The translations under genes were made by a program, and so were the position numbers. The notes beneath the pieces are model-generated. The model was not told the origin of the DNA and made no database searches. It saw nothing but the letters and a program-made list of their open reading frames with translations. From a virus, in the IMG/VR virus record IMGVR_UViG_3300042691_026427, positions 64,001-128,000 of that record: a stretch of DNA of 64,000 bases. One strand, 5' to 3'. Below, in pieces: positions 44,652-61,167 of the stretch (position 1 is the first letter of the stretch; each line of letters starts with the position of its first letter).

Positions 44652-45062
44652 TTATGTCAGGTCAGCAATCATAAACTCTTCATCGAAATATTGACGAACA
44701 TCTGGAACCATTCCTTGACTTGTGTCAAATTGCCATTGCCCAATGACTTCTAGTATTTGATTGTAAATTGTCGAGTTGTCTGTGTATCTTACAAAATATG
44801 GATCATTGCCGTATAACAGATCAGCATCGTCCAAATAGTCAATAGGATCGCCACCAAAGTATTCCGATAACCAACGAGCGTAGCATATGCCTACCATGTA
44901 GCTTTTTGCAGGATAGATCCATCCGATATCTTTTTCAGTAAAATATCTTACAGCATTATTTGTTATGTCATCAGACAGCACAATTTCTTTGGTATTGAGA
45001 TCGTCATCAAACACTTGATTGATCCGATGATAAACTTCTTGTCGTATTTTCCATTCTTTCAT
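44652..45062 (-). CDS. Hypothetical protein, last gene of the radical SAM cluster
   Basis: 136 aa; overlaps the upstream rSAM gene. Confidence 0.7.
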   Translation of the reverse strand: MKEWKIRQEVYHRINQVFDDDLNTKEIVLSDDITNNAVRYFTEKDIGWIYPAKSYMVGICYARWLSEYFGGDPIDYLDDADLLYGNDPYFVRYTDNSTIYNQILEVIGQWQFDTSQGMVPDVRQYFDEEFMIADLT

Positions 45063-45972
45063 TTTTGTACCAGTTTATTAAATTGTAATAACCATTACAA
45101 CTATTGTCAAGATCCTTAACATACCTATAGTGCTCAGTTAAGCACCCGCCAAAGTAATCACAAGTGCGGCAAACATCACTGACATTAGCTTGTTTTTCTT
45201 TCTTAGTCCATTTAATGTAGTCATCAAATGAATCAAGTCCTAGAAAGTATTCTCTATCGTTAAGATCAAATTCAAGAACACCAAAGTTACCATTAGGAGT
45301 TATATAAACATGATCATCACTGAATGCATTTCGTTGCTTGTTTATCACATCTTCTATATAGTATTCATTAATAAATTCAAACTGTTTAGGTATTGAAGAT
45401 GCTATCCATTTTTTAACAAATTTTTCGTAATCAGCATGGCTAACATTGTAGCAGTTGGCCTGATTAATACTATAAGGTTTTATCTCAACACTTTCGACAC
45501 TTGAACATAAATTCATAGATTCAATTAACTCATCTACATTCATTTTCAATACTTCAGGACTTGCCAATACTAACACTGCAATAGGCACAGGACTCATTAA
45601 CATATTTTGATAAACTCGATCATGCTTTTCACGAGCTGACCAATCGTAACTAACACTTAGATAAAAGTCATCTTCGTAAAATCCCTCATGTAACATTGAA
45701 AAATTAGTAATAACATTAATCTTTCCTTGATAATGTTTACGAATAACATCACGCATTGCATAGAAGTAATCTTTTTTTAGAGCACCAATTTCACCGCCAT
45801 ATAAATCTATATGGCCTATCTCAGGTATTTGAGCCAATAGGCTATCTAACTTATCTAAGTCTATTTTATTAGTATCGGCAAGTTGCTGTTCAGTAAGATA
45901 ACAGAAGTCACATCTAAAATTACAAAAATAACTAGGATTGATCGAAACGGTAATAGGCTTATTCATGTTCAT
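45007..45972 (-). CDS. Radical SAM protein with C-terminal Cys cluster
   Basis: CNFRCDFC, YGGE, and C-terminal CRTCDYFGGC...C. Confidence 0.9.
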   Translation of the reverse strand: MNMNKPITVSINPSYFCNFRCDFCYLTEQQLADTNKIDLDKLDSLLAQIPEIGHIDLYGGEIGALKKDYFYAMRDVIRKHYQGKINVITNFSMLHEGFYEDDFYLSVSYDWSAREKHDRVYQNMLMSPVPIAVLVLASPEVLKMNVDELIESMNLCSSVESVEIKPYSINQANCYNVSHADYEKFVKKWIASSIPKQFEFINEYYIEDVINKQRNAFSDDHVYITPNGNFGVLEFDLNDREYFLGLDSFDDYIKWTKKEKQANVSDVCRTCDYFGGCLTEHYRYVKDLDNSCNGYYNLINWYKNERMENTTRSLSSDQSSV

Positions 45973-47029
45973 TTACATAAGGTGTAGGATCTACTTTTCC
46001 AGTCAATCCGTTTGCTTCAATTATGAGAGGCGCTAGAGTTTTCATCTTAACACAATGAGCTTCTACCATATTGTGGTCTTTTAGATCTTTGATTGTTTTC
46101 TTGCAACCGTTGCATATTTGAAACATAGGGCAAGTCCAACAGCTCTGTTTTAAACTTTGTAATTCAGGTTGAAACTGTAAGGGAAATACTTTCTCCCCTT
46201 TCATTTCTTCTTCAAAGTTTATATTGTAGATCCGGTCATCACCAAATGCTCCGCAACTGTAATAATCGCCTGTAGGCTGCAAGGTTCTTATACCACTATC
46301 GCACGATCTGTTCTGAGGACAACTTGTGGCATATCCGTTCAAACGATTTACCATTTGTTTTGTGTTAAATTCCCATTCAGTTAACCCTTGTTGCCAAATT
46401 TTTACATATATTTCGTATATGTCAGCTAACATGTATGGTCTACCTTCTTGTCCCATAGTAATATTTTTAAATTTAACTGGAGGGCCACTGCTAAATGCAT
46501 AATTGAGTTTACATTCAACATTCATTTCTTTTGCCAGCTCTACATTCTTAATTGCAAGATGTTGATTCTCTTCTGTAATTACTGTGATAAAATCAGGACG
46601 ATATCCTATGCGCTCTAGCATCATATTGCTGACTGCCCAAAAGTCCTCTTCGCTGAATTCTGTTAGGTCTCCCTTAAGACGGCCGCCGCCATATTGGAAA
46701 CTAGTTGTGACTCCTAGGCGAGGATGCTTAAACAGAGATTCCCACTTGGTAGGATTTTTATAAAATGGCCACAGATTACTTGTAAAACTGATAGTAGCTG
46801 TCGAGCCTATATTGTCTAAGTGTTCAATAAGTTTCCAATAATAATCTGGTGGCATCATTAAGGGGTCGCCGCCATTGACAATTATAGTTCGAGTTTCTGG
46901 AAATCTTTCTAAGAAACGAAAGATATATTCATGATCAAGCTCTGCAGACTTATCTTCAGTAATGTTCGTGCTAGAACAAAATGTGCATTTAAAATTGCAC
47001 CGTTCAGTTGGCTTGATTATTAGATCCAT
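45959..47029 (-). CDS. Radical SAM/SPASM protein
   Basis: KPTERCNFKCTFC, NGGDP; SPASM-like C..C...YYSC...CWTCPMFQICNGC...C. Confidence 0.9.
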   Translation of the reverse strand: MDLIIKPTERCNFKCTFCSSTNITEDKSAELDHEYIFRFLERFPETRTIIVNGGDPLMMPPDYYWKLIEHLDNIGSTATISFTSNLWPFYKNPTKWESLFKHPRLGVTTSFQYGGGRLKGDLTEFSEEDFWAVSNMMLERIGYRPDFITVITEENQHLAIKNVELAKEMNVECKLNYAFSSGPPVKFKNITMGQEGRPYMLADIYEIYVKIWQQGLTEWEFNTKQMVNRLNGYATSCPQNRSCDSGIRTLQPTGDYYSCGAFGDDRIYNINFEEEMKGEKVFPLQFQPELQSLKQSCWTCPMFQICNGCKKTIKDLKDHNMVEAHCVKMKTLAPLIIEANGLTGKVDPTPYVNEHE

Positions 47030-48674
47030 ATTCTACTATTTCTTCAAAGAGGTTATTATAGATTAACTGCTCGTTTGAATTTATAAATTCTTCGATTATT
47101 TCTAATCTATTTTTTCCATTTATTTTTGTTATATCCTTAGCAGCAGTTTCGTAATTTAGTGTATCTTTTACATCGTTGTATATCTCTTTAAAAGAACTAA
47201 TGTTATTCATAGCGGTCCAACAATATTCAAGAAATGTCCGAACATCTGGTAAAACATCTTTTAAGTTTTTCCAAAGTTTCCTGACTAATGTATCTGATGC
47301 AAAAGACATAATAAACATTTGAATGTTATCTTCTAATGTATAAGAGTTACAACTGGATATAGTTTTAAAATAATTTTTACGATTTTTATAAAGGCCGCTT
47401 GAAATAAAAGAAATTCCTTCTTCTACGGTTTGTGTGAAAACTTCTACTAATTTTATTTTATTTAAAGCACAATAAAGATCATCAGTAATTTCACTATCTG
47501 GTAGAGCCATATAATCATAAAAACAATATTGAATATTATTGTTTTCTAAACTATTGTATATCACTAACAGTTCATCATAAAAATCATCCAATGTTGAACC
47601 CGGCATTGCTCTTATAAATTCCATAAAAGGAGATGATGCTCCAAAATTTTTTTCGCAGTATTCAATTAATTGTATTTTATCTATCTTGTTTAAATCAACA
47701 CGTTTAGAAATCTTCATTGCATTATCACTTAAACTCTGAATACCTATATTAGGAACTATCGATTTTCTCCCGTTTGACGTATCTGTTCCTGTTATTTTGA
47801 AAATCTCATCAATTATCTTAATTTTTTTATCTAGATTTGTTGTTTTAAACAATGAAGAGTTTATAAATGACATTCCCAAGTCATATGCATATTTTAAGAA
47901 AAACAAGTCTCGTTCTAAGAATAATCCAAAGTTTGCATCAACATTATAAATTTGCTTATAACCTAATTTGTGCAGCACATCTATTTCTCTAATTACAATA
48001 TCTTCAGGTTTCTTTAACACCTTAGTTCCAATGCCGCCACCCCATTCACAATATGTACAATGAAATGGGCACCCTCTTGTAGTTTCTATTAATACGTGTG
48101 GAAATATTCCCTCAATATCGGCGTAGTCTTTTATCTTTTTTAAGTAATCGAAATTTTCTTCATATGCACAAACATTGGGAAATTGCCATTCTCGGCATTT
48201 AGTACTTCTTAATTCAAAACTAATATCTTCTATGTTAGGTATTCCGTTATTTTCAAAATAGGAATCTATAAAATCTTGCATGAATAGTTCGCCTGGTTTT
48301 GTTACCTGACAGAAATAATCATACATAGTTTTCTTTTTGAAGATATCTATATCTTTCTGCCCTATTTGCGGACCGCCCAACACATTAACTATATTAGGGT
48401 TAATATTCTTTGCCAATCTTGCAACTTCATCTATGATATCAGTATTCCAAATGTAAGAACTGTATAAAATTATGTCAGCAGTATTAACTTCTTCCCATAT
48501 TTCTTTACAACTTTGATATCTGTTATATTTGAATGGTGGCTCTAACCATTCAACTAAATCTTTGTATTTTCCAAAATTATCATAGTATGATTTCATCCAT
48601 ATCCAAGTCACTGGACTGAATAGCTCAGTGTCAATGCTAGGAGGATTTACAAAAGCTATTTTAATTTTTTTCAT
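47004..48674 (-). CDS. Cobalamin-binding-domain radical SAM protein (class B methyltransferase-like)
   Basis: N-terminal SSYIWN..VLGGPQ (B12-binding-like); ETTRGCPFHCTYCEWG; DANFG; GIQS. Confidence 0.8.
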   Translation of the reverse strand: MKKIKIAFVNPPSIDTELFSPVTWIWMKSYYDNFGKYKDLVEWLEPPFKYNRYQSCKEIWEEVNTADIILYSSYIWNTDIIDEVARLAKNINPNIVNVLGGPQIGQKDIDIFKKKTMYDYFCQVTKPGELFMQDFIDSYFENNGIPNIEDISFELRSTKCREWQFPNVCAYEENFDYLKKIKDYADIEGIFPHVLIETTRGCPFHCTYCEWGGGIGTKVLKKPEDIVIREIDVLHKLGYKQIYNVDANFGLFLERDLFFLKYAYDLGMSFINSSLFKTTNLDKKIKIIDEIFKITGTDTSNGRKSIVPNIGIQSLSDNAMKISKRVDLNKIDKIQLIEYCEKNFGASSPFMEFIRAMPGSTLDDFYDELLVIYNSLENNNIQYCFYDYMALPDSEITDDLYCALNKIKLVEVFTQTVEEGISFISSGLYKNRKNYFKTISSCNSYTLEDNIQMFIMSFASDTLVRKLWKNLKDVLPDVRTFLEYCWTAMNNISSFKEIYNDVKDTLNYETAAKDITKINGKNRLEIIEEFINSNEQLIYNNLFEEIVEYGSNNQAN

Positions 48675-49723
48675 TAGTTATATTTTAACACATTTTCTTC
48701 GTCGAGTCTATTAAAAAATTCTCTAAACAGACATTCGTCATTGCGTTCCAATTTTGCCCAATCAGCTTGCACAAAACATCTAAATGAGCAACGATCAAAC
48801 CATTTACATCCCAAGCATTTGTTGCGTTCAAGATGCGCTTCTATAATATTGCTGTTAGAAGAAAAATTAACCGGAGTTAGAAAATCTTCAGGCTCTGTCT
48901 TTACATAACGACAAGTTACTTCTCTACCTGACGGAAGTATAGTAGTCTTGTTCATCGAATAACAAGTCATCTTATTACGACTGTTTTCCAATAGATCTTT
49001 TACGGGATAAATGTTGGGATAATTCTTGGCAATATACATCATACAATCCAACATTTCCTGTTCACTAGGCATCATCTTATCTGCAGACAATTCTGGAACA
49101 TAATAATCAAAATACAATGTATATTTTTTATACAGTGTATCTATAAAAAATTTGTCTTGGTTGCGTAATATCTTTCTAATAGCCGGAGCAGTGAGTACAA
49201 ATCCAATAACAGTGATCCAATCTCCAAATATTTTTAAGTTATTTTCAAATTGTAATGATCTGTTTAAATTAAAACCTCTGCCTGCAAAGTCATAAGATGT
49301 CGAGATATATGCATTATTTCCCACAGCTCGCATACGAGTTATTAAGTCAATTACACGTTGACTCTTGTTGAATATCAAATTAGTTACCCAATTAAATCTA
49401 ACAATCTTGTTGTTGAGGTTAACCCAATCATTTATTTTTGAATAGAATTCCCAATAAGATTCAAATGTGTTATCTGGCACTAGATCATTAAAAATCTCTC
49501 CACCCATGACGTTTACAATATGGGAATCCTTATCAGATGCCGTCATGAAATCTATAACTTGCTGAGCCTTATCAACAATACTGTTAAGTTCCATTCCTTC
49601 TGTAGAATCGTGATCTTGTCCGCAAAATGCACAACTTAGATTGCAAAATTCAAATAGATGCAACTCGATTTCAGATGAATCGGGTACCTTATCTCTTAAT
49701 ACATGTTTTAGAAAATCACTCAT
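48674..49723 (-). CDS. Radical SAM protein with C-terminal Cys cluster
   Basis: CNLSCAFC, MGGE; C...C...CLGCKWFDRCSFRC...C. Confidence 0.9.
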   Translation of the reverse strand: MSDFLKHVLRDKVPDSSEIELHLFEFCNLSCAFCGQDHDSTEGMELNSIVDKAQQVIDFMTASDKDSHIVNVMGGEIFNDLVPDNTFESYWEFYSKINDWVNLNNKIVRFNWVTNLIFNKSQRVIDLITRMRAVGNNAYISTSYDFAGRGFNLNRSLQFENNLKIFGDWITVIGFVLTAPAIRKILRNQDKFFIDTLYKKYTLYFDYYVPELSADKMMPSEQEMLDCMMYIAKNYPNIYPVKDLLENSRNKMTCYSMNKTTILPSGREVTCRYVKTEPEDFLTPVNFSSNSNIIEAHLERNKCLGCKWFDRCSFRCFVQADWAKLERNDECLFREFFNRLDEENVLKYN

Positions 49724-50129: not shown

Positions 50130-51061
50130 TATCTCACCTCAAACATTTTATATATAGCGTTTGGATTATCACTGTGTTTATATGCCCAATAGACTTTGCT
50201 CACAAACGTGCAGATTGCATTTTTGCCCAACGAATCTGATAGATAGGTAATCCTACAATCATTGCCTAGATCTCTATATAGTAGTTCTTCATATTGTTCT
50301 GCATATATAAGAGAAACAGGTTCTAAATAACTATCAACGCCAGCAGCATCTCTGTGAGCTATTGCATGATTATTAAATATTTTGATCATTTCTTTATAGT
50401 CAGGGAACAGTTTTCTTAATGCATGTTCGACATTAACATTGTTATGGTCAAAATCATAACCTAATATAAAATACCAGTCATTGTGATCTAGCATTTTTTT
50501 CGGAATATCAGAAAGTCGACTGGTTGAAAATTCTAAATCAGTTCCTGTAATATAATGAGCATTAAAAATGTCTCTCTTCATATCAGTTGCATACATTTGA
50601 AGTTCTTGAGATAACAATGACCAACAACAGAATTTAACGTATTCTAATAGTTTAGTTTTTCCCAAACCGCTTAATAGAAAGTTTGGTAATAAAAACTCGT
50701 AACCTAAATTGTCAATTGACAATTCTTCTAGACAAGAAATCTTATTATAATCTGTTTGGAAGATATCAACATATTTTTCTAAATTACTTTTTTCGTTATT
50801 CAAAGATAAATTTAAGAAGTATAACTCAAACAAATTGGTTAAGTTTTCTTTGCTGTTATCTTTTAATATATTTGAAAAAAAATCTCTAAAAATAGTTACA
50901 AACTGTTCTTCACTGCAATTAATCTTTATACTCTTTTCTTGGAATAATAATGTTTGCCAAAAAGCATCACTATTCTTTCCCAAAAGGTTGTCAGCAGATA
51001 TTGTTGAATCATAATCAGATTTACAACGTGTTAACCAAACATTGTTGAATAATCTTATCAT
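50129..51061 (-). CDS. Hypothetical protein, paralog of 56911..57963
   Basis: MIRLFNNVWL / YEFLLPNFL / LLYRD align with MFHLFKRAYL / FEYLLPDYL / LLHRD. Confidence 0.7.
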   Translation of the reverse strand: MIRLFNNVWLTRCKSDYDSTISADNLLGKNSDAFWQTLLFQEKSIKINCSEEQFVTIFRDFFSNILKDNSKENLTNLFELYFLNLSLNNEKSNLEKYVDIFQTDYNKISCLEELSIDNLGYEFLLPNFLLSGLGKTKLLEYVKFCCWSLLSQELQMYATDMKRDIFNAHYITGTDLEFSTSRLSDIPKKMLDHNDWYFILGYDFDHNNVNVEHALRKLFPDYKEMIKIFNNHAIAHRDAAGVDSYLEPVSLIYAEQYEELLYRDLGNDCRITYLSDSLGKNAICTFVSKVYWAYKHSDNPNAIYKMFEVR

Positions 51062-51801
51062 AATTTACAAACTTCAGACAATAAAATATCTTTTGCCCAT
51101 CTAATAGGAATATGTTTAGATACATCTCTATTAGATGCAATAACTAGTGAGTTATCATGAGCCAATAAGCATTCTTCTACAGTACGATCTGACATAGTTA
51201 ATGTGCCAATATCTTTTTCAAAACTTAATGCTGCTACTAAATTTGCGTAATTGAATAGTTTATATAAGTTTTCTCCATATATATTTTCTACATACTGTTT
51301 TATTTCTAGGAAGTTTATGGGCACAGCTAGAGTATGTGTATCTCTTAGCATATCGTATCCCATTAATAACTGATCACTAGTAAATCTTATCAATGATCCC
51401 ATAAAGAAATATGTAGTGTTCTGTTCAATTGACTTCACGGGCTTATCTATTTCAAGGAGTGCAATATCGAACTGAGACGCACTGGTCATCCACTTTAAAT
51501 ATCCTTGGTCAATAATTTCGTATACTGCACTATCAGACCTAGATTTATTACGACTGTCTAGAGTACTGTGACGAATTTTACAATAAGATACCCAGTCTGA
51601 TCTAGAATAGCGTAATCCAGTAGCTAGTTGACCAAAATAAACAGACAACATTCCACTTATCGACAAGTGTCCTGGCTCATAATTTCTATCACCTAATGTA
51701 AATCTATAAAATCCTGGAAAGAAATCCCCAGAAGATAAAATTACCTTTGCAAATTCTTCGTCTGTAATATCTCTAGCTAGATATATTAAATCAATTGCCA
51801 T
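51058..51801 (-). CDS. Hypothetical protein (rSAM cluster)
   Basis: 247 aa; overlaps both neighbours. Confidence 0.65.
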   Translation of the reverse strand: MAIDLIYLARDITDEEFAKVILSSGDFFPGFYRFTLGDRNYEPGHLSISGMLSVYFGQLATGLRYSRSDWVSYCKIRHSTLDSRNKSRSDSAVYEIIDQGYLKWMTSASQFDIALLEIDKPVKSIEQNTTYFFMGSLIRFTSDQLLMGYDMLRDTHTLAVPINFLEIKQYVENIYGENLYKLFNYANLVAALSFEKDIGTLTMSDRTVEECLLAHDNSLVIASNRDVSKHIPIRWAKDILLSEVCKL

Positions 51802-52894
51802 ACGGAAGTGTACCCATTGCGTTTACTACTTCAAGGGCATTCTTTGCAACTAGACAATCTTTTACATTATGAACATCCATTAGATGCAAAATACCACGAT
51901 CAACACACGATCCTAAGAAAGGGCAGTCACCACATTCAGTCTTATCTCCGACATTAGAATACTGTGCTAATTGAACTGTCTGTTCAAAATTTTCAAAGTC
52001 TGTAGCGTGATGATTAGGTGTTGGAATTTTTAAGTCATCAATAAAACTAGCATATCGTTCATACAGTAATGGTGAGTAATAAAATTCTCCATTCTTCCAA
52101 TTGTATTGTTTTTCAACTAGCGAATCAGATAGTCGTCCAAACGAAAATCTTAGATAGTTATTTTTTTCATTAGTTACTACAGAATCATTAAACATTTTTT
52201 TAATTCGTTCTGCTGAATTAAAAAATTCTTCTGTAGTTAATTTCTCGTCTTTTCTTCCAAAAGAAAAATTAAAATCAATTGTGGTTTCGAATAAATGATT
52301 TACTCTCTTGTGTAGGTAATCATAATTTTTTAAGAGATCAGATATTTTAGTATTATCATAGTCGTAAACGTTCATAATGCCAAATGATCTTAGCTTTGTA
52401 GGCCAGTTCATCAATCGAATTACTTCTTCTTGATTTTTCTTAATTGTTTCTAAGTATTTGTCATTTTCTATCTGTTCAGGTTCGATAATGACATTGATTT
52501 CTAATTCGAGATTTGAATAATGATCTCTCAACACATCGGCAATTAAACTGGCCTTGCTGATGTCTAAGTAAGTTGTTTGAAAAGATAATCTTTTAAATTT
52601 ATTGAATATCTCTATAATTCTCTTGTCTGTTAGTAATGCATATGCATTTTTTGCTGAAAGGAAATCAGTAGGGCCAACAAATGCAATGAACGGACTGTAA
52701 TAATTGCCAGTGTTAAATGAATTTAAAACATTTTTTAAATCTTCATAGTGTGCATCTGTAAGAGGTTCTGCACCTTCTTTGTTTACATGACATCCTTTGC
52801 AATTCCACTGACAGCCATTTAATAATTCAAAATTTAAATTAAAATAAAATGTATAGGAATCATTTAAATTACCAGAAGCAAGATAGGCATCCAT
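51791..52894 (-). CDS. Divergent radical SAM protein (PTD in place of GGE), paralog of 58639..59640
   Basis: CQWNCKGC; GPTDFL; C-terminal CGDCPFLGSC...C. Confidence 0.8.
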   Translation of the reverse strand: MDAYLASGNLNDSYTFYFNLNFELLNGCQWNCKGCHVNKEGAEPLTDAHYEDLKNVLNSFNTGNYYSPFIAFVGPTDFLSAKNAYALLTDKRIIEIFNKFKRLSFQTTYLDISKASLIADVLRDHYSNLELEINVIIEPEQIENDKYLETIKKNQEEVIRLMNWPTKLRSFGIMNVYDYDNTKISDLLKNYDYLHKRVNHLFETTIDFNFSFGRKDEKLTTEEFFNSAERIKKMFNDSVVTNEKNNYLRFSFGRLSDSLVEKQYNWKNGEFYYSPLLYERYASFIDDLKIPTPNHHATDFENFEQTVQLAQYSNVGDKTECGDCPFLGSCVDRGILHLMDVHNVKDCLVAKNALEVVNAMGTLPYGN

Positions 52895-53614
52895 TTATTC
52901 TACTCCAAATACTTCTTCCGGATTTAGCGGAATTTCTTTGTTTATCATTTGATACAATAAGGGAACAAACATATTTAAATCATTATTATAGTAGTCAAAT
53001 AACGATTTTCCCTTAAACATGTGTGCTTCAAATTGTTGAGTAAAATACGTTAAACTTAAAGGTCTGTCTACTGAAAAGTATATTTCTAAAAAGCCTGGCA
53101 AACTAAAAAGATTAACAACATTTAATCCAACATAATGGGGATCATCAATATTTTCAAAGTTCTCTTTAACATTAAGTTCTGCGTTTAAGTCTTCAAAACT
53201 TTTAATTAGAAACAACATAGTAGAATCAATAAAATGAATCCAACGACCTACTAAACTTTCATTCTTAGTAATAAATTCTTCACACTCTTCTTTGGATAGC
53301 AAGCTCTTTCCATAATTTGCATCAGGATAAATGGCTTGTAAGATAATTTGAGCCGCAGCAACATTCAGATATGCAATGTTCGAAACACTGTTCCCCCCAA
53401 AATAAGCTTCAATTAATTCAAACTTTTGTTCTTTGGTTACTGACTCATTTAGAACCAAGTCAGAAGGAATATCTAAATTTGAGAGGTATACTAACAGTAC
53501 TTTTCCTTGAATTTTTGACTGTTGGTAATCTACCATAAAGAATGTATTTTTATCTTTAAAGTACTCTTTGATTTGATCAATTGGTATTGGTGCAATCGTC
53601 TGAACGTAATTCAT
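52895..53614 (-). CDS. Hypothetical protein (rSAM cluster)
   Basis: 239 aa, coupled to the neighbouring rSAM genes. Confidence 0.7.
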   Translation of the reverse strand: MNYVQTIAPIPIDQIKEYFKDKNTFFMVDYQQSKIQGKVLLVYLSNLDIPSDLVLNESVTKEQKFELIEAYFGGNSVSNIAYLNVAAAQIILQAIYPDANYGKSLLSKEECEEFITKNESLVGRWIHFIDSTMLFLIKSFEDLNAELNVKENFENIDDPHYVGLNVVNLFSLPGFLEIYFSVDRPLSLTYFTQQFEAHMFKGKSLFDYYNNDLNMFVPLLYQMINKEIPLNPEEVFGVE

Positions 53615-54728
53615 TATAATTTTTCCTAAGTTCTGTTAAATTTTGTTTTGCTTTTGTTTCGTATAGTTGTATAAAGGTAGATTTGTTATTTCTAATCCTC
53701 GATATAACTTTTTTCGACAACGGGCATTCATCGCTGTCATCAAACAGACTTGCATCACAATTTCCGCCGCAAATATCATAATGTTCACATGTGAAGCACA
53801 TTTCATGTTGTGTCATTTCGGCTAATTTATTTATAATGACATCTACGGCCTTGGTTTGAAATGTATCCCAGTCGTTTACCATTTCATCAACTGTAGATAC
53901 AGGTTCAACATAAGTCTTGTCGGGGCAAAATCCAACAGTACCATTTGGATTTAACGTAAATGTTCTTTTATCGCAACAATTACATTTACAATCAAACATT
54001 TGACCGCTCAATAGAGTTTTGGTGAATAGATCTACTTGTGGTAAGCACCAAGTAGTTTCATTATGTTGGTAATATTCAACCAAAGTATCTAACCAATTTG
54101 CCCATTTGATATTATTTGGTTTTAAACTTCTTGTCTGTTCATCAAACGTAGTGAGCAATTCAAAGTCTATAGAATCAACTCCATCAAATAGTTTTACAAT
54201 TTCGAGAGGATCATAATTTAAAAGATATTTCTGTGCTGTGATAGATATATGCACTTTTATACCTGCATCTATTAATTTTTTTAAATTACCAAAGAATAAA
54301 TCTTCTTGCTCATGTTTTTTATTAATTGCAATAGATCCAAATCTTATATCAGCGTCCCAACTTACTCCAATAGTTGATCTATATTCATCCTTAATAAATT
54401 GAATAAATGTATCGTCTACCTTATAGAGTAAATTGGTTTGGGGTACAATGTCCATCGGCATTGAGCCAAAAGTATTTCTTATTATTTCATTTACTTTAAC
54501 TAAATGTTCGTAAGGTGATAAAAATGTCTCGCCACCATGTATGTAAAAAGTAGCCTTGGCAGGATCAACATTTTTTTTAATTGAGGTTAGAAATTTTTCA
54601 ATGTAACCTAAATCAGTAAGCATATAGGGATCTTTGTCTCCTAATGTAAAACAGTGAGTACAATTTAAATTGCAACCCTGTATCACTCTTAGATAGATTA
54701 CATTGAATTCGTTTGAAAAAACGTTCAT
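53577..54728 (-). CDS. Radical SAM/SPASM protein, paralog of 59633..60688
   Basis: CNLNCTHC, HGGE, SWDADIRF; CKCNCC..GFCP..CFTCEHYDICGGNC...C. Confidence 0.9.
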   Translation of the reverse strand: MNVFSNEFNVIYLRVIQGCNLNCTHCFTLGDKDPYMLTDLGYIEKFLTSIKKNVDPAKATFYIHGGETFLSPYEHLVKVNEIIRNTFGSMPMDIVPQTNLLYKVDDTFIQFIKDEYRSTIGVSWDADIRFGSIAINKKHEQEDLFFGNLKKLIDAGIKVHISITAQKYLLNYDPLEIVKLFDGVDSIDFELLTTFDEQTRSLKPNNIKWANWLDTLVEYYQHNETTWCLPQVDLFTKTLLSGQMFDCKCNCCDKRTFTLNPNGTVGFCPDKTYVEPVSTVDEMVNDWDTFQTKAVDVIINKLAEMTQHEMCFTCEHYDICGGNCDASLFDDSDECPLSKKVISRIRNNKSTFIQLYETKAKQNLTELRKNYNELRSDDCTNTN

Positions 54729-55597
54729 AACTTCGGCTTGCTTGCCACAATAAAATAATAGTTAAGTTTATTGTTTTTATGATTTTCTATAAAATATTCT
54801 TCAATGCCACTTTTAAGTTCCCACTGAGATCTCAATTCCCAATAAGGTACCAAATCTTTAGTTCTATCTTCAGTAAAAATTAAGTTTAAGCCTGAGTTAA
54901 CTATTGCAGTTTCGTATTCATTAATACCATGCATGGTAGATGCGTAATGATCGTTAATAGGTTCAATAAATTCATTAAAATTATTAGTGTCTAGATTGTC
55001 GTTAAAACACCAAGTGGCAATTACAAAGCGGCCACCGGGTTCTAAAACTCTGTATACTTCCTTAAACAACATGTCAAGTTCTAATGCATATTGAGTAACT
55101 TCGCAGCAATATGCATGACTAAAAGTAGCATCAGCATAGGGAATACTTAGAAAATTAGCCTGTCTAACTTCTGCTCTATCTTGTAAATTTCTTTTTTCTA
55201 TTTCGTCTTTACAAAAATTAGTTTGATACTCAGTTAAATTTACACCATCGACTTTGACATTTGAAAACTTTTCTATAATCCTAAACATGGTGCCTCCGCG
55301 TCCGCAGCCCAAGTCAATGACTCGTTGTGGTGTACCAAATAGTTTATCAAACTGTAAAAATGTTATTAAGTGACTAGTCAGTTTGTTTTCTTGTCGTTGG
55401 ACTTCTGCTGTAATTTCTTCTGTAGTTGCAGTAGTAGCATCTATTTCAGTAGGGCCTAAGCCAAAGTGATGATGAACAAAACCATCAACTGCTTGTAGCA
55501 AGTTTCTATCATTCTTTTTATTGTTATAATAATCAAATACCGCAGTACTAAGCGTGTTTTGAGTTTGGGTATGATCGTTGTTAAATTTTGTATACAT
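54725..55597 (-). CDS. SAM-dependent methyltransferase, geranyl-diphosphate 2-C-methyltransferase-like
   Basis: Motif I DLGCGRGG, plus VDGFVHHHFGLG, INDHY..MH..EY and PYWELR...GIEEYFIE. As I recall them, these match prenyl-diphosphate C-methyltransferases. Confidence 0.8.
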   Translation of the reverse strand: MYTKFNNDHTQTQNTLSTAVFDYYNNKKNDRNLLQAVDGFVHHHFGLGPTEIDATTATTEEITAEVQRQENKLTSHLITFLQFDKLFGTPQRVIDLGCGRGGTMFRIIEKFSNVKVDGVNLTEYQTNFCKDEIEKRNLQDRAEVRQANFLSIPYADATFSHAYCCEVTQYALELDMLFKEVYRVLEPGGRFVIATWCFNDNLDTNNFNEFIEPINDHYASTMHGINEYETAIVNSGLNLIFTEDRTKDLVPYWELRSQWELKSGIEEYFIENHKNNKLNYYFIVASKPKL

Positions 55598-56218
55598 TTA
55601 AATTTCCAGTAGTGCTTTTGCGTCTGTTGCAAAAGAATATCGTGTGCCAATAAAAGGTTTTGCCCTATGCCAAACATCCGACGCCATTACTATCATAGTA
55701 TACGGGATAGGAGCATATTTGTAAACCGGATTTAAATTTTCAGGCAACCAAACATGTGATAACGGGTTTTCTTTTAAATCTTCATAGAATTCAAAACATC
55801 CGTTATCCATTCCAATAGTATCATCTTGTTTGATATATAATACTGTGGTCACGTCACCGATTTCATCTGCTCTTAAAAAAGGTTGCCAGTGACGATGTAT
55901 ACGTTGGCCTTGCCAACTGTTAGGAGTGTTGAGCCATGAATCCTTGTCTAGATAATAGTTCTGGCCTTTGCCAGCAAATCTAGGATGCACCGTATCTAGA
56001 AAATCAAAAATAATGCTGTCTATTACAGCTTCAAACATCTTCACTTCTGGTGTATTTGTTTCCCAGACGTTTAATTTGTTTTTTTCATCATCGGGTCCCA
56101 AAAAATACATTTGCGTATTGTCAATTAACGAATTACAAAATGGTTCTATAAGTTCTTTGTAATCATTTAAATCATATATCATTGCATTAAAGTTAGGAAC
56201 TTTAAATTTGTTTGTCAA
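55598..56218 (-). CDS. 2OG-Fe(II) oxygenase-like protein
   Basis: WLN...IHRH...TVLYI...GCFEF...WHRAKPFIGTRYSFA. Confidence 0.7.
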   Translation of the reverse strand: MTNKFKVPNFNAMIYDLNDYKELIEPFCNSLIDNTQMYFLGPDDEKNKLNVWETNTPEVKMFEAVIDSIIFDFLDTVHPRFAGKGQNYYLDKDSWLNTPNSWQGQRIHRHWQPFLRADEIGDVTTVLYIKQDDTIGMDNGCFEFYEDLKENPLSHVWLPENLNPVYKYAPIPYTMIVMASDVWHRAKPFIGTRYSFATDAKALLEI

Positions 56219-56904
56219 TTTTGAACCTCATCAAATACAGTAGATTTCATCAAGGGGTCGGCAGGATAGTAATATAACTTTAACTTCAATGGTTGATAGG
56301 TAGTTGCGTTATATGTCAAACCAAACACCTTCATAAAAGTAGTGTCTTTGCAAAATTCTTTAACAGATTCGATGAACGGAATTGGAAGATTATAAAAATT
56401 TGCAACTGTTTCAACATTTTGATGCATAAAATATAAATCTTTCTTTTCGGGATTAACGCTGATACCTTGTCCCCAGTGACTTAATATTTGACTTCCTGCA
56501 ACTATCATCGGCTGTGTATGTTTCCACAGATCTAAATCATAAAATTTTGGAACCTGTTGTTTGCTATCTAAAAAATAATTGATACAATAATCGTCATGTG
56601 GTCTAACGATATTAATGTTAAATTTGTTGCAATCGATCCTTCCTCCGGAATATACAGCCATGAACTTGTGTTCGGTATAGTTTATACCATCTGCAGGTTG
56701 GAAACTAAATTGTTGCAATTTTTCTAAGTTCACACCTTCATTAAAGATAGAACCCATAACATCAATATAGGCGAACAAATAATCGTCTGGAACTTTTTTA
56801 GAATTAAACAAGTTCTCTTCTACTTTGTTACCTACGATTGTTATCTCTTCGGCATGTTGATTTATTTCTTTGCTTATTTCTTTAAAAAAGTCAATACTAT
56901 TCAT
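56215..56904 (-). CDS. Hypothetical protein (weak resemblance to aromatic prenyltransferase strands)
   Basis: 229 aa; C-terminal VFGLTY....LKLKLYYYP and internal KKDLYF. The function call is speculative. Confidence 0.55.
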   Translation of the reverse strand: MNSIDFFKEISKEINQHAEEITIVGNKVEENLFNSKKVPDDYLFAYIDVMGSIFNEGVNLEKLQQFSFQPADGINYTEHKFMAVYSGGRIDCNKFNINIVRPHDDYCINYFLDSKQQVPKFYDLDLWKHTQPMIVAGSQILSHWGQGISVNPEKKDLYFMHQNVETVANFYNLPIPFIESVKEFCKDTTFMKVFGLTYNATTYQPLKLKLYYYPADPLMKSTVFDEVQN

Positions 56905-56910
56905 AGTACA

Positions 56911-57963
56911 TTAGTAAAGTCTAAATGGAGCCAAATCTGCTGTTAAATTTTGTCTCTTTTTTCTATAGCAATAAGTTGAAAATATTTGATTAGATTTTTC
57001 TCTAAATAATTCAAATGTATAAAGACACCCAAAGTTTCTATTGATGTCTCGATGTAGTAATCCTTCCCAATCTTCAGCCATAAGCATTTGGTTTACTTCA
57101 AACATATCTTCATTACCTGTATGATCGGGCACCCATATTCTTTCTAAGGAATGCCATTGATTAACAAGATTGTTGTAATCATAGTTAGAAGTAATGTAGG
57201 AAGGTTCTGCTGAGAAATTCTCATCAACCATCCAATTTAACGTTGAGCTGTTTTTCAATTGGTCTTCGACGTTACCTATTTCAAAGTTGCTGTCAGGGTC
57301 TATTACACCCATGTCTAAGAATCCAAACATCGTTTCTAATCTTAGTTGCTCCAACTCATCTCGCCAGTTGTCAATACTAATGATTCTAACACGGTCTAGT
57401 ATTTCTTCTTTGCATAGACTTTCTTCACCATGATATAGATAGTCGGGCAAAAGATATTCGAACGAAACATCCTGTTTATTAATGACATTTCTTAAAAAAT
57501 TAGAAACTGGTTGAGCATCGTATATAACTTTGAATTCTTCGAATGATTTCATCTTAAAAGTATCTCTTACCATTTGATGTCGCGTATCGGGTGCATTAAC
57601 TTGTATATAGGATCTTACTCGCACACTTTCAACCATTGATTTATACAGGAGGTAAACATCTTGCTCTGAAGCATATTGAAATATACTTTTTGCATATTGT
57701 ATTAACAATCTCTCAGTAACATCGGTTTTTAAATAGGCGATAAGTTTGTGATCAGCTTCGTACATATATTGCCAAAATTGTTCAACATCGTTTTCAAAAT
57801 TGTTTGCCAATAACTCGTCAAATGTGCCAACTGACGGCAGTATACAAATATCTGTTGGCATTGGAAAGAGATTGTATAAATCGGTTGCCATTAACATTTT
57901 GTAACCAATACTGTCGAATTTATAATCAAATTCTAAATAAGCTCTTTTAAATAAGTGAAACAT
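56911..57963 (-). CDS. Hypothetical protein immediately downstream of the candidate substrate
   Basis: Likely start MFHLFKR at 57963, forming a TAATG overlap with the stop of 57963..58625. Confidence 0.7.
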   Translation of the reverse strand: MFHLFKRAYLEFDYKFDSIGYKMLMATDLYNLFPMPTDICILPSVGTFDELLANNFENDVEQFWQYMYEADHKLIAYLKTDVTERLLIQYAKSIFQYASEQDVYLLYKSMVESVRVRSYIQVNAPDTRHQMVRDTFKMKSFEEFKVIYDAQPVSNFLRNVINKQDVSFEYLLPDYLYHGEESLCKEEILDRVRIISIDNWRDELEQLRLETMFGFLDMGVIDPDSNFEIGNVEDQLKNSSTLNWMVDENFSAEPSYITSNYDYNNLVNQWHSLERIWVPDHTGNEDMFEVNQMLMAEDWEGLLHRDINRNFGCLYTFELFREKSNQIFSTYCYRKKRQNLTADLAPFRLY

Positions 57964-58625
57964 TATCTTCTTCCTCTTGATCCGTGGCAATTATTATGGC
58001 ACGATGAATGACACACACGTAAATCAACTGTTCCTATTGAACCTCTTAGTGCAGTAACTGCGGCAGCTAAATTAGTATAAAAATTGTTGATATTGGCTGC
58101 AGAAATAGTAGCATTTGTACTTGGTTCAGATGATACGAACCCTACAGATTGCAAATAATTATTATTAAGATGGGCTTGGCCATAAGTTAATAAAACTGTT
58201 CCGGAGAAAAAGGGGATGTTTGCATTGTCTGACGGTACGCCAGTTTGAGTATATTGACCGTTAAAATATTGAGTATAATAAAGGCCCCAAACAGCTGGAC
58301 GTAATCTAGTAGTAGCATTGGCAAATGCTTTGCACATATTAACAATTAAACTGGCGTTTATTGTCAAACCGGATGCTCCTGAACCAGGTAGATTAGAAGT
58401 CGTTGGATATGCGTATGTATTCGTACCTAACTCACTTAACCTTGCAGAGAGGTATGCTCCTGTCCAGCCGATAACAGTACCGTTGTCCCACATTCTAACG
58501 TTAATTACTGGAACGTTGTAGTAGTGTATGCTTCCACTAGGGTCCATTCGCGAGGTATTCATCACTGTTGCAATAAAGTCATTAACTACGCTGGCTTTGG
58601 TTATAACTTGTCCTGTAGATGCCAT
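57963..58625 (-). CDS. Candidate radical SAM substrate with a C-terminal (CHxx)3 tail
   Basis: 220 aa ending DLRVCHSSCHNNCHGSRGRR; AAAGGA RBS and TAAATA upstream; Thr/Asn/Ser/Gly-rich body. Confidence 0.7.
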   Translation of the reverse strand: MASTGQVITKASVVNDFIATVMNTSRMDPSGSIHYYNVPVINVRMWDNGTVIGWTGAYLSARLSELGTNTYAYPTTSNLPGSGASGLTINASLIVNMCKAFANATTRLRPAVWGLYYTQYFNGQYTQTGVPSDNANIPFFSGTVLLTYGQAHLNNNYLQSVGFVSSEPSTNATISAANINNFYTNLAAAVTALRGSIGTVDLRVCHSSCHNNCHGSRGRR

Positions 58626-58638
58626 TTATCCGTTCCTT

Positions 58639-59640
58639 TTATTTAATATCCAAAAAACAACCCATGTTAAAATCTCTTGCTATAGGAAAATACCCTTTTC
58701 CCATGCAGTGGGTTAAATTTTTACAATTGACACATTTGTCTAGTATCACGTTATTTATATCATCTATACTGCTGTAAGTTTTAATAAAACCTTCGTAATT
58801 TGGAGTCAGCACTCTAAATCGAGGATTATCTATAAAAACGTATTCATCAAAAGGAATAATAGGAGTTAAAAAAATATCACCCGGTGACCCTAAAAAAGTA
58901 AATGCAGGTTTTCGCAACAGTGTTCTGTCGTTGTATTGTTTTGTTGCATTCTCTGTACCTAAATAATGATCAGTTATGTCATGTATGGTTCTAATGCTTT
59001 CTTGCAACATGTTTGTTTTTTTCTCCAAACTTATATCTGGATTATACAAAAATGTAAAATTTAGTTCAATTATCTCATCATCGGATAAAAAATCTAACAT
59101 TTGGTTTAGTTTAACTTTTTCCTTATCGGACAATGTAAATCCGGTATTGATTGCCAAGTTGATTATAACATCATCGCCGTATGTTTCTTTAATCTTTGCA
59201 ATTCTAGATTTTATTGTTATTTGATAGTTTATGTCAAACAGTTTTGCTATCAATAGATTGACCTGCAATTCAATTTTGGCCAATGGATTATTGTTTTTTA
59301 CAATTTTAAAAAATTCTGGATCAAACCCTGTTTCTAACGTAGATGCCACACCCACATACTCAAACAATGAAACTGTTTCTGCAAATTCTGCATTTTCAAA
59401 CAGTTTGTAATTGTCCTTGTTATCAAATATATCAGTTGGCAATAGATAACAAGTTTCCAATTCATAACCGTTTTTCAACAAGTCTTTGGCCAACGATAAC
59501 GAAGATGTAAAATCGTTGTAATTATTTTTAGTTCTGTTGTAAAAACATCCCCGGCAATCCATGGAACAGTCATTCAATACCAGCATTCTAAATTCTGCCA
59601 GTTTGTATGGGTCACCATATCTTTCGTAGGAATTATACAT
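58639..59640 (-). CDS. Divergent radical SAM protein (PTD in place of GGE)
   Basis: CSMDCRGC; LPTDIF; CVNCKNLTHC...GC. Confidence 0.8.
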   Translation of the reverse strand: MYNSYERYGDPYKLAEFRMLVLNDCSMDCRGCFYNRTKNNYNDFTSSLSLAKDLLKNGYELETCYLLPTDIFDNKDNYKLFENAEFAETVSLFEYVGVASTLETGFDPEFFKIVKNNNPLAKIELQVNLLIAKLFDINYQITIKSRIAKIKETYGDDVIINLAINTGFTLSDKEKVKLNQMLDFLSDDEIIELNFTFLYNPDISLEKKTNMLQESIRTIHDITDHYLGTENATKQYNDRTLLRKPAFTFLGSPGDIFLTPIIPFDEYVFIDNPRFRVLTPNYEGFIKTYSSIDDINNVILDKCVNCKNLTHCMGKGYFPIARDFNMGCFLDIK

Positions 59641-60688
59641 GATGTACAGCCTTGATAGGAATTGTAATTCTCTTTGGCTTTGCCAATGCTTTCATCAAAC
59701 TTTTCGGTGCTCCGCATATATCGTCCTGCCATTCTAGTTGATGACAATCGCTGTTGCAGTATTCAAATACTTCGCAAGTATAACATCTAGGATCCCTAGC
59801 TCTTTCGCAAGAAATGTTTTCTAATCTCTGGGGACTTGTTAACAAAGAGGCAATGTCATCATCAATGTGGCCAAATTGATGTTCTGGGGCGCTATTGGGG
59901 CAACCAGATATAGTTCCATCAGCATTTAGGGTAAACAGCTTTTCTTCACAGTCCCTGCAAAATGTAGCGCCATTGGTAAGTCCAATTTCAAATTTAGCAT
60001 AGATGCTTTCCATAAATTCGTTACTGAACCATGACCTTGCGTCATGCTCTACTATCTGATGGTGCATCTTTAAAAACCACTGATCTTGTTCTAAGTTTGT
60101 GGGAAATATATGCAAATTTTCTCTTGCGCTGCCGTTCATAGTGAGACGCTCAAGTGCTAGATCAGTAACGCCTAAATCTCTTATCCATTCCAGCAGATCA
60201 ATAGGTTCCATGGCAACGGTGCCTCGGGTAACACTGACAAACAGTTTGACCTCAACTCCTAGATCAATTAGGGTCTGCAGATTCTTTCGCCATAAGTCGT
60301 ATTGTTTAGGACTGGCAAATCTTATGTCTGGATCCCAGCTAGTTCCTATGCGGCCTCCCAATGGCCCCATGATAAAATCAATCTTGTCCTGTGTTAACTT
60401 ATAAGTTAAGTTGGTAGTGACACCCCAGCTGCGACTAGCCCATAATTCCTGGCATTGATCATACACATACTGCATCGATGATATATCTGCTAAAAAGGGT
60501 TCGCCGCCGTGAAACTCTAAATGTACATGGGGCGCACTAGCTGTTTCAACATGTAGACGTTTAAGCCAATCGGCAACCTTTACATGATCCCAATATATCT
60601 TTGCGCCTTTGCTGCCGCTAGTAAAACAGTGCAGGCAATTGAGATTACAGGTTTCTGTAGTCTTGAGGTAAATCATTAATTCTTTCAT
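59633..60688 (-). CDS. Radical SAM/SPASM protein
   Basis: KTTETCNLNCLHC, FHGGEP; CRDC..GCP..CYTCEVFEYCNSDC..C. Confidence 0.92.
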   Translation of the reverse strand: MKELMIYLKTTETCNLNCLHCFTSGSKGAKIYWDHVKVADWLKRLHVETASAPHVHLEFHGGEPFLADISSMQYVYDQCQELWASRSWGVTTNLTYKLTQDKIDFIMGPLGGRIGTSWDPDIRFASPKQYDLWRKNLQTLIDLGVEVKLFVSVTRGTVAMEPIDLLEWIRDLGVTDLALERLTMNGSARENLHIFPTNLEQDQWFLKMHHQIVEHDARSWFSNEFMESIYAKFEIGLTNGATFCRDCEEKLFTLNADGTISGCPNSAPEHQFGHIDDDIASLLTSPQRLENISCERARDPRCYTCEVFEYCNSDCHQLEWQDDICGAPKSLMKALAKPKRITIPIKAVHHV

Positions 60689-60696: not shown

Positions 60697-61167
60697 TTAA
60701 TAGCCTACGCTAAGGGCCCAAGTATTTTGTACACTGCTGACTCGATGTAGATAGCCCCGTGGTATTATCACATGCTGACCCGGATGCAATACAACCTTTT
60801 TATTTCGAATGTAAACTGTCTTTCGACCCTTTATTACATGCAGTAATACATTTACATCGTCTTTGTGCCAATCAAAACTGTAGCCAAATTTTTGATTGAC
60901 AAATAGGTGTATGTTTTTAAAATTTATCTTGTTAAAACAAGAACTGACAGCGTGATCTGTTTCAAGGCCTTCAACTTTTATCACAGGATAGGATTTATGC
61001 TGTTCTATCCATTGAGAAAAAGTAAAAAAATCTTTAACTATGCAATCACTGTGTTTATAGTCAGGGTGACCTATAACTTTTATTAAACCCTGTTCATACT
61101 TGGAATAATCTAACAGCTGATCGGCCAGTAATTTACTTACTGTCTTGGTCAGGCAGTGGTCCGCCAT
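60697..61167 (-). CDS. JmjC/cupin-type 2OG oxygenase
   Basis: FDWHKDDVNVLLHVIKGRK.V...LHPGQ..IPRGYLHRV (HxD...H triad). Start uncertain. Confidence 0.75.
   Translation of the reverse strand: MADHCLTKTVSKLLADQLLDYSKYEQGLIKVIGHPDYKHSDCIVKDFFTFSQWIEQHKSYPVIKVEGLETDHAVSSCFNKINFKNIHLFVNQKFGYSFDWHKDDVNVLLHVIKGRKTVYIRNKKVVLHPGQHVIIPRGYLHRVSSVQNTWALSVGY

Follow-up and report, generated by a model that had tools for sequence, protein, structure and literature searches.

Positions 64,001 to 128,000 of the IMG/VR virus record IMGVR_UViG_3300042691_026427, a large uncultured phage, form the 64,000-nucleotide window analysed here. On its minus strand the window carries a gene (hereafter SUB) for a 220-aa protein that ends in DLRVCHSSCHNNCHGSRGRR, a 16-residue Cys-His-x-Ser/Asn repeat tail with a basic end. 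The gene lies within a cluster of radical SAM, cupin and oxygenase genes and genes of unknown function (Table 1). Families are denoted rSAM0, rSAM4 and rSAM8 for radical SAM families, and f3, f7, f10 and f24 for unknown proteins.

Table 1. Features of the SUB cluster in the 64,000-nucleotide window; locus counts refer to the 82 loci compared.
Position	Strand	Feature	Supporting observation
57963..58625	-	SUB, Cys-His-tailed protein; predicted folded alpha/beta body plus C-terminal tail	ORF ending VDLRVCHSSCHNNCHGSRGRR; PHROG 35144 (uncharacterised phage protein family), E 3e-10, residues 114-220 on profile positions 79-186 of 186
57966..58013	-	16-codon tail, CHSS-CHNN-CHGS-RGRR (residues 205-220)	C205, H206, C209, H210, C213 and H214 are the only invariant columns of 129 aligned relatives
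58639..59640	-	Divergent radical-SAM-like gene (CSMDCRGC), rSAM8, between rSAM0 and SUB in this window	Family in 20 loci, 53 of 56 members with CxxxCxxC; paralogue of 51791-52894 (E 2e-5)
59633..60688	-	Radical SAM/SPASM enzyme rSAM0, the family directly upstream of SUB in nearly all loci; no N-terminal RiPP-recognition domain	SPASM TIGR04085, 32.1 bits (cut-off 27)
60697..61167	-	Cupin/JmjC-like protein at the head of the cassette	Pfam Cupin_2, 1.5e-7; JmjC_2 hit for the Atu_ph07 copy
56911..57963	-	Unknown protein f7 (phrog_36207); likely ATG overlaps the SUB stop codon	Family in 56 loci
54725..56904	-	Insert largely specific to this window: GPP 2-C-methyltransferase-like enzyme, 2OG-Fe(II) oxygenase and unknown f24	Methyltransferase and oxygenase in only 1 locus, f24 in 8 to 9
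53577..54728	-	Second rSAM0-family radical SAM/SPASM enzyme	SPASM, 28.7 bits (cut-off 27)
52895..53614	-	Unknown protein f3 (phrog_20767); directly after SUB in most loci, here displaced into a second module	No family or solved relative found; PDB profile search, E 0.53
51791..52894	-	Second rSAM8-family divergent radical SAM (CQWNCKGC)	phrog_31457
48674..49723	-	Radical SAM rSAM4, the second conserved putative maturase family	
47004..48674	-	B12-binding radical SAM (KedN5-like C-methyltransferase type)	NF033712, 3.5e-29; family in 24 loci
45007..47029	-	Two further rSAM0-family radical SAM genes (45959-47029 and 45007-45972)	SPASM, 27.8 bits for 45959-47029 (cut-off 27)
44652..45062	-	Unknown protein f10 (phrog_20737), closing the cassette in most loci	Family in 46 loci

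The observation made in the sequence-only reading, that three perfect Cys-His units lie at the extreme C-terminus before a basic end with only one other Cys in the protein, is confirmed, the protein having four Cys in all with C99 alone outside the tail. That reading also gave the gene its own ribosome-binding site and a TAAATA element. A Shine-Dalgarno-like AAGGAA does lie 7 nt before the ATG, and TAAATA is present, but as part of ATTAAATAA, which overlaps the stop codon of the upstream gene and is not the T4 late-promoter octamer. An exact TATAAATA lies 127 nt upstream at 58752-58759, inside the upstream gene. A promoter of its own is not a general property of the gene, as in most loci it is tightly coupled to the upstream radical SAM gene, and a T4-type late promoter precedes it in only 9 of 62 loci, against 61 of 1211 background genes. 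The SUB stop codon overlaps the start of the next gene (TAATG). Among public runs, no RNA holder was listed.

Three similar helical motifs had also been proposed in the body. These 'I-x-x-A...' motifs map onto the three long helices of the AlphaFold2 model (residues 10-25, 91-107 and 176-197; pLDDT 83.7, pTM 0.80), but their similarity to each other is not significant (hhalign E 0.05-0.13), and an internal triplication of the body is not supported. The suggested structural-protein-like composition was a guess that no fold match supports. Foldseek against PDB gave no hit with E below 1, a wide VIA-align search gave a best Z of 3.8, a search of the ESM atlas gave TM 0.30 or less, a PDB sequence profile gave nothing convincing, and BFVD returned only uncharacterised phage proteins. 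Atlas look-ups of f3 and f7 were similarly uninformative. No Pfam or NCBIfam family, solved fold or paper was found that describes the protein, including literature searches on the motif and on radical SAM enzymes in phages.

The tail is conserved far beyond chance. About 195 database relatives and more than 130 viral contigs carry the same C-terminal (C-H-x-S/N)x3 motif, usually followed by R-G-R-R, while their bodies (about 120-300 aa) diverge to 20-30% identity. C-H at all three positions is invariant in all 129 aligned relatives, and the full CH..CH..CH.SRGRR ending is exact in 168 of 196 collected proteins (the 195 database relatives plus RSL2 ORF068), the rest being near variants. Selection acts on the protein rather than the DNA, as there are 81 distinct tail DNAs that vary freely at synonymous sites, with Ser using both AGY and TCN codons and Arg both AGR and CGN. 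No fused or longer forms were found, which is weak evidence.

In 80 of 82 loci examined the gene lies in one cassette together with rSAM0 (197 copies), whereas f3 is present in 75 loci, rSAM4 in 74 and the cupin in 64, in the recurrent order cupin-rSAM0-SUB-f3-f7-rSAM4, with further radical SAM and 2OG-oxygenase genes. In this window rSAM0 is one gene away from SUB. The same linkage holds in 8 of 10 MAG contigs, the other two having no informative flanks, in a gut contig ending CHHR, and in a variant ending CHGSI, whose immediate neighbours are rSAM0 and f3 on contigs too short for wide context. Loss of the tail among homologues, or homologues without radical SAM genes, had been named beforehand as observations that would count against the proposal, but the tail is conserved in all homologues, and no homologue with enough flanking DNA lacks radical SAM genes. 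However, most of the loci come from related aquatic T4-like phages, so their shared gene order is partly inheritance.

The rSAM0-SUB-f3 core is also present in the unrelated cultured jumbo phages Ralstonia RSL2 (phiKZ-like) and Agrobacterium Atu_ph07 (Rak2-like), where the rSAM0 profile finds copies at E 1e-139 and 7e-148, respectively, and the f3 profile finds RSL2 ORF070 and Atu_ph07 AUZ94951 at about 1e-50. In comparison, RP12, RP31 and XacN1 lack the motif, although RP12 and RP31 have radical SAM genes. A tblastn search of other subfamily members against cultured phages found nothing, because the low-complexity filter masks the tail.

The sequence-only reading inferred that the body is possibly virion-bound, and this gains experimental support from the published virion proteome of Atu_ph07. 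The homologue AUZ94952 has a computed mass of 31.89 kDa, which identifies it as gp170 of that proteome. It gave 8 unique peptides and 35% coverage and was most abundant in gel slice 1, the top slice, far above its mass; it is the only one of 34 proteins of 25-40 kDa with at least 3 peptides to peak there, the next highest peaking in slice 4. None of the cassette enzymes was detected. However, the particles were PEG-purified only, the list includes some non-structural proteins, and the RSL2 homologue is annotated only as hypothetical whereas a neighbour is called a virion structural protein. Further, the loading buffer described for the gel lists no reductant, so disulfide-linked multimers would explain the top-slice signal. 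The tail could then be an assembly staple whose cysteines form disulfides or spontaneous cross-links with other particle proteins after lysis without enzyme action, the neighbouring enzymes being unrelated passengers of the fibre region. We consider this unlikely, because it does not explain the invariant His and Ser, nor why rSAM0 and f3 travel with the gene through rearranged cassettes and into unrelated phage lineages. SDS-stable high-mass forms of a particle protein, as gp170 appears to show, are found in the HK97 capsid 'chainmail', but those isopeptide cross-links are autocatalytic Lys-Asn bonds in the capsid protein and involve no dedicated enzyme cassette or Cys-His tail.

The enzymes at 59633, 53577 and 45959 carry CxxxCxxC plus a SPASM domain above cut-off and are thus SPASM radical SAMs, a class that acts on peptides and proteins. 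However, all their matches to curated maturase families are far below cut-off, so the chemistry cannot be read from homology. The rSAM0 family shares with the anaerobic sulfatase-maturing enzyme (anSME; TIGR03942; PDB 4K36-4K39), which oxidises a Cys in a protein substrate, an RRE-less architecture of about 350-370 aa (radical SAM core plus SPASM), and its profile aligns over its full length to 4K37, although with E 1e-6 only. Against TIGR03942 the enzyme scores 47.4 bits, with a cut-off of 349. The last repeat, C-H-G/S-S-R, shares the Cys and the Arg at +4 of the sulfatase motif C-x-P/A-x-R, but does not satisfy the substrate motif (C/S)-x-(P/A)-x-R, as the third unit is C-H-x-S-R with x being G in 117, S in 40, N in 5 and A in 4 of 168 members, and never Pro. 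There is no sulfatase domain.

The HXS antiphage system (HxsA effector with HxsB/HxsC radical SAMs and HxsD; TIGR03976-03979; Li et al., Nat Commun 2026, PMC13128918) likewise has a protein-sized substrate with repeated His-x-Ser units, encoded beside paired radical SAM/SPASM enzymes and a small helper, and an rSAM-dependent covalent change (+8 Da) maps to an S-H-R-S-S unit of HxsA. The units HSS, HNN and HGS of SUB, and H-x-S/N across its family, fit this repeat. However, HXS is bacterial and defends against phage, whereas the present system is phage-encoded, with three C-H-x-S units at the extreme C-terminus and 4-8 radical SAMs plus oxygenases. HxsA has a signal peptide, a peptidoglycan-binding domain and no Cys in its repeats, whereas SUB has no Pfam or NCBIfam domain and its N-terminus (MASTGQVITK...) has no hydrophobic signal as judged by eye. 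The enzymes score 20-31 bits, at best 30.6 for each model, against cut-offs of 370 for HxsB (TIGR03978) and 267.9 for HxsC (TIGR03977).

In triceptides, formed by three-residue cyclophane-forming radical SAM/SPASM enzymes (XyeB, GrrM, FxsB, YhhB and the His-specific HaaB and HtkB; PMC11499958), the aromatic-x-x unit is repeated, His can be the aromatic donor, and Ser, Asn or Ala are acceptable third residues, so that H-x-S/N fits in form. However, triceptide precursors are short peptides with leaders, none is known in a virion, and the invariant Cys before each His has no counterpart. Enzyme similarity is generic only, the best score being 45.6 bits to YhhB (cut-offs: YhhB 445, GrrM 310, FxsB 370, AmcB 425). 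Similarly, thioether-forming SPASM enzymes (PapB ranthipeptides, CteB/SCIFF, QhpD acting on QhpC, and the CXXX-repeat system TIGR04115) process regularly spaced Cys residues, which here occur at every fourth residue, and QhpC is a small protein subunit that receives three cross-links. In SUB, there are no Asp/Glu acceptors at the expected spacing, and scores are 49.7 bits for PapB (cut-off 340), 21.8 or less for SCIFF (425) and StsB (625), and 23.8, over the N-terminal region only, for TIGR04115 (350). Prediction of a complex of SUB with rSAM0, three 4Fe-4S clusters and SAM returned a score of 0.00, which is no evidence either way.

The main rival to enzymatic maturation, though an unlikely one in our view, is that the tail is an unmodified metal-binding or redox motif, with Zn, Cu, Fe or an Fe-S cluster held by three Cys-His pairs and possibly shared between subunits. 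The radical SAM enzymes would then act on something else, such as fibre proteins, a small molecule or nucleic acid, and SUB would be a structural or accessory partner, for example a cluster or electron donor. Cys and His are the classic metal ligands, and the i, i+4, i+8 spacing puts them on one face of the short helix predicted by AlphaFold2 for residues 209-217. The phage must supply many Fe-S enzymes, and the strict co-occurrence would also fit an accessory role. However, general metal tails tolerate variation, whereas here the fourth position (Ser, rarely Asn or Ala) and the R-x-R-R end are also fixed, which ligand geometry does not require. The presence of the protein, but none of the enzymes, in the virion is odd for an enzyme cofactor donor, and no Fe-S, Rieske or Zn motif is known to have this spacing.

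A classical RiPP precursor, in which the folded body is a very long leader and the 16-residue tail is released as a small bioactive peptide, would match the usual layout of a C-terminal core next to radical SAM maturases. This appears very unlikely, as no protease or exporter family was recognised in the cassette, the body is present in virions, and the body is predicted as a confident, well-packed fold, unlike leaders. The possibility that the overlapping C-x3-C-H units are covalent haem-attachment sites of a c-type cytochrome-like protein is more remote still. CHSSCH and CHNNCH both read as CX3CH, a rare variant of the CXXCH haem motif, but the two units share the middle Cys, no cytochrome family matches, and without a signal peptide (judged by eye) the protein would not reach the periplasmic haem-attachment machinery.

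The explanation we favour, as more likely than not, is that SUB is a small phage particle protein with a fast-evolving body, whose tail is covalently matured in the infected cell by the co-encoded SPASM-type radical SAM enzymes, namely rSAM0 plus rSAM4 and paralogues, helped by f3 and trimmed by cupin/JmjC and 2OG oxygenases. The likely result would be carbon-carbon or carbon-sulfur cross-links at the C-H-x-S units, either His-to-Ser/Asn cyclophanes as in triceptides and HxsA and/or Cys thioethers, or a Cys-derived aldehyde. In this view, the matured protein enters the virion, probably near the fibre/baseplate apparatus beside whose genes the cassette sits, and there forms SDS- and heat-stable high-mass species. 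The data establish the family, the invariance of its tail, the cassette linkage, and the virion presence and anomalous migration of one homologue, while the role of the tail as enzyme substrate, the chemistry and the position in the particle are inferred. No modification has been observed in any member, three Cys and three His could simply bind metal or form disulfides, and four to eight radical SAMs is a surprising number for a 12-residue target. The interpretation in the sequence-only reading, of a folded, possibly virion-bound domain displaying a crosslinked or metal-binding tip, is thus partly supported.

Radical SAM/SPASM maturation is known for small peptides (RiPPs) and for a few cellular proteins, namely sulfatases, QhpC and HxsA, but we found no description of it for a virus particle protein. 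The system is widespread, with more than 130 IMG/VR contigs from freshwater, marine and gut sources, and is directly testable because three groups of cultured phages carry it (RSL2/FLC/S13, Atu_ph07 and Phosso). It would also give a function to the unexplained pile-ups of radical SAM genes noted in jumbo and T4-like phage genomes (PMC5332604, PMC11898562, PMC8066314). A more far-reaching possibility, which we hold tentatively as somewhat less likely than not, is that large phages of several unrelated lineages run a dedicated multi-enzyme radical-SAM/oxygenase pathway that rebuilds the Cys-His-Ser tail of one of their own particle proteins into a cross-linked, possibly metal-binding or covalently anchoring end-piece used at the host-contact apparatus. 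This would be a new class of virion maturation and a new radical SAM chemistry on C-H-x-S units. If the tail is modified, phages use natural-product-type chemistry to finish their virions, and an invariant 12-residue C-H-x-S target with 4-8 dedicated enzymes promises new cross-link chemistry.

The product of the open frame of the tailed protein ends ...VDLRVCHSSCHNNCHGSRGRR and contains four Cys in all, one of them outside the tail, so that the observation made in the sequence-only reading, namely three Cys-His units at the extreme C-terminus followed by a basic end, is confirmed. An AAGGAA lies 7 nt before the ATG, and the stop codon overlaps the start of the next gene (TAATG). The TAAATA credited to the gene in that reading is part of ATTAAATAA, which overlaps the upstream stop codon, and is not the T4 late octamer. 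An exact octamer, TATAAATA, lies 127 nt upstream of the start, inside the preceding gene, and another precedes a distant ORF; however, only three occur in 64 kb, which is fewer than the shuffled expectation, and they are weak leads. The record is a 149-kb IMG/VR virus contig, estimated to be 44% complete, and carries one copy of the gene. The rest of the window holds collagen-like tail-fibre genes and a 4472-aa ORF.

Features of the window and of the Atu_ph07 locus, with coordinates
Feature	Sequence	Coordinates	Strand	Remarks
Tailed protein	window	57963-58625	-	open frame of 220 codons
Stretch with CxxxCxxC genes	window	45007-60688		eight such genes
T4-type late-promoter octamer	window	58752-58759	-	exact
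T4-type late-promoter octamer	window	4620-4627	-	exact; 24 nt before the ORF that starts at 4596
Methyltransferase	window	54725-55597	-	matches geranyl diphosphate 2-C-methyltransferase (NF041943) over its whole length, 171 bits, below the cut-off of 400
2OG oxygenase	window	55598-56218	-	
Unknown gene	window	56215-56904	-	
B12-binding radical SAM	window	47004-48674	-	KedN5 C-methyltransferase type, E 3.5e-29, below cut-off
Weak paralogue pair	window	50129-51061 and 56911-57963	-	BLASTP E 2e-4
Weak paralogue pair	window	51791-52894 and 58639-59640	-	BLASTP E 2e-5
Giant ORF	window	10618-24036		4472 aa
ORF with ferrochelatase-like and oxygenase halves	window	2789-3970	-	393 aa
AUZ94962 (gp180)	Atu_ph07	19979-28001		about 4450 aa, 'T4-like structural protein'; coordinates are those of locus L097

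Relatives of the protein were collected by a word-indexed search, which gave 86, and by an exhaustive HMMER search, which gave 114 representatives at 50% identity. Of 196 collected proteins, 168 end exactly in CH..CH..CH.SRGRR, and the rest are near variants such as R-S-R-R, R-I-R-R or -CHGSI. In an alignment of 129 sequences, the only invariant columns are the three Cys and three His, while Ser at the fourth place of each unit and the Arg residues are conserved in at least 90%; identity to the window's protein falls to 20-30% in most relatives. Across 81 distinct tail DNAs, synonymous codons are used freely, with Ser drawn from both the AGY and TCN families and Arg from both AGR and CGN, so selection is on the peptide. 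No Pfam or NCBIfam model matches the protein, and only PHROG 35144, of unknown function, does. The AlphaFold2 model is confident (pLDDT 83.7, pTM 0.80) and predicts an alpha/beta body with a low-confidence short helix in the tail. The model has no convincing match in PDB, in a Foldseek-independent search or in the ESM atlas, and in BFVD it matches only uncharacterised phage proteins, among them one from Agrobacterium phage Atu_ph07.

Of the eight CxxxCxxC genes in the window, at least three have a SPASM domain above its curated cut-off and one is of a B12-binding type, and the same stretch also holds a cupin, a 2OG oxygenase and a methyltransferase. A pattern scan of IMG/VR found 134 contigs that encode relatives, of which 80 were retrieved, and all genes in these loci were clustered de novo. 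Among the 82 loci, the neighbours included the SPASM radical SAM family rSAM0 in 80 (197 copies), the unknown protein f3 in 75, the radical SAM family rSAM4 in 74, the cupin in 64 and the unknown protein f7 in 56. The B12-binding radical SAM is an optional member, found in 24 of the 82 loci, and several small 2OG-Fe(II) oxygenases (Pfam PF13759 and PF13640) also recur. The commonest order is cupin - rSAM0 - the tailed protein - f3 - f7 - rSAM4 - (B12 rSAM) - ... - rSAM0 - rSAM0 - f10 (a further unknown protein), and it usually lies directly after fibre-like genes. In the window, the methyltransferase, the adjoining 2OG oxygenase and the unknown gene beside it form an insert that is absent from nearly all other cassettes. 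The two weak paralogue pairs support the idea that this cassette is built from two duplicated modules, a layout that also occurs in three contigs from MAGs (L082, L083 and L086).

Rearranged versions of the cassette exist. In one, represented by loci L058, L063-L069, L074, L087 and L090, two tandem short tailed proteins (about 124 and 127 aa, tails CH.SCHYSCHGSRGRR) are followed by the unknown protein f19, then f3 and three to five copies of the divergent radical SAM family rSAM8; even these versions keep the radical SAM genes and f3. A CHGSI-ending variant is likewise flanked by rSAM0 and f3. Among 185,579 species-representative genomes, only 10 contigs match (L082-L091), all from MAGs and mostly labelled Bdellovibrio-like. 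Eight carry the same cassette and the other two have no informative flanks. Flanking genes include a phage tail-fibre protein in L084 and PHROG families in L082, so we read these contigs as phage DNA placed in bacterial bins rather than as cellular genes. One of them, a 208-kb contig binned as a gut Gemella (L089), encodes a family member ending ...CHSSCHSNCHHR, without the SRGRR end, which is surrounded by at least four rSAM0-type genes and f3, so the basic end-piece can be replaced.

The protein is also present in cultured phages. Ralstonia jumbo phage RSL2 and eight related Ralstonia/Burkholderia records encode ORF068, of 186 aa and ending VCHSSCHTSCHGSRGRR, which lies between a radical SAM gene and further radical SAM genes. 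Profiles built here find rSAM0, the tailed protein and f3 in both RSL2 and Atu_ph07, with E values of about 1e-139 to 1e-148 for rSAM0, 1e-25 to 1e-30 for the protein and 1e-50 for f3. Sinorhizobium phage Phosso has the protein too. Published descriptions of these phages list the cupin, radical SAM and 2OG genes as accessory genes without comment. In contrast, no (CHxx)3 coding pattern occurs anywhere in the genomes of Ralstonia phages RP12 and RP31 or Xanthomonas phage XacN1, although RP12 and RP31 are reported to carry radical SAM genes; phage radical SAM clusters therefore exist with other, unknown targets. Apart from the cassette, the 393-aa ORF of the window has an N-terminal half matching PHROGs annotated as 'ferrochelatase' and a C-terminal 2OG-Fe(II) oxygenase half, which is an unusual fusion.

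Evidence for presence in the virion comes from Atu_ph07. Its homologue AUZ94952 is 296 aa long and ends DFCHSSCHASCHNSRSRR, and its computed mass of 31.89 kDa is that listed for gp170 in Supplementary Table S5 of Attai et al. 2018 (PMC6102473); the neighbours AUZ94958 and AUZ94959 (66.07 and 21.66 kDa) match gp176 and gp177, which fixes the numbering. gp170 was detected with 8 unique peptides and 35% coverage in gel slices 1-9, and was most abundant in slice 1, whereas among the 34 listed proteins of 25-40 kDa with at least 3 peptides, all the others peak in slices 4-13. However, the particles were PEG-purified, the list contains a few non-structural proteins, and the loading buffer as described has no reductant. 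Disulfide-linked multimers could therefore explain the anomalous migration. None of the cassette enzymes, and not f3 (gp169), is in the list. A giant protein, gp180, is encoded 6 kb from the Atu_ph07 cassette, as a giant ORF is in the window and in many loci (the about 2000-aa family f11); gp180 is also missing from the published virion list, but it may be too large to enter the gel.

The invariant tail has three features of an enzyme substrate in a RiPP-like system. Its fixed residues alternate with free ones; the gene is strictly linked to SPASM radical SAMs through rearrangements and across phage lineages; and its H-x-S/N units match those modified in triceptides (PMC11499958) and in HxsA (PMC13128918). 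rSAM0 starts its CxxxCxxC at residue 14, so it has no leader-recognition domain, and it aligns end to end with anSME, an enzyme that acts on a Cys of a protein. This fits a folded protein substrate, perhaps presented by f3. Every match to a curated maturase family is far below cut-off, so the chemistry cannot be assigned from these matches. While the conservation of the tail, its linkage to the cassette and the detection of one homologue in virions are direct results of the analysis or of published proteomics, the covalent modification of the tail and its role as the substrate of these enzymes are inferred. The proposal of the sequence-only reading, that a folded and possibly virion-bound body displays a crosslinked or metal-binding tip, is thus supported only in part.

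Taken together, we consider enzymatic covalent maturation of the tail of a virion protein to be more likely than not. A tail that only binds metal is a less likely alternative, an enzyme-independent disulfide staple is unlikely, a small RiPP cleaved from the body is improbable, and haem attachment is very unlikely. We found no paper that describes this system, which is testable in cultured phages. In this view, it would represent a form of radical-SAM protein maturation in which the modified target is the tail of a phage virion protein.
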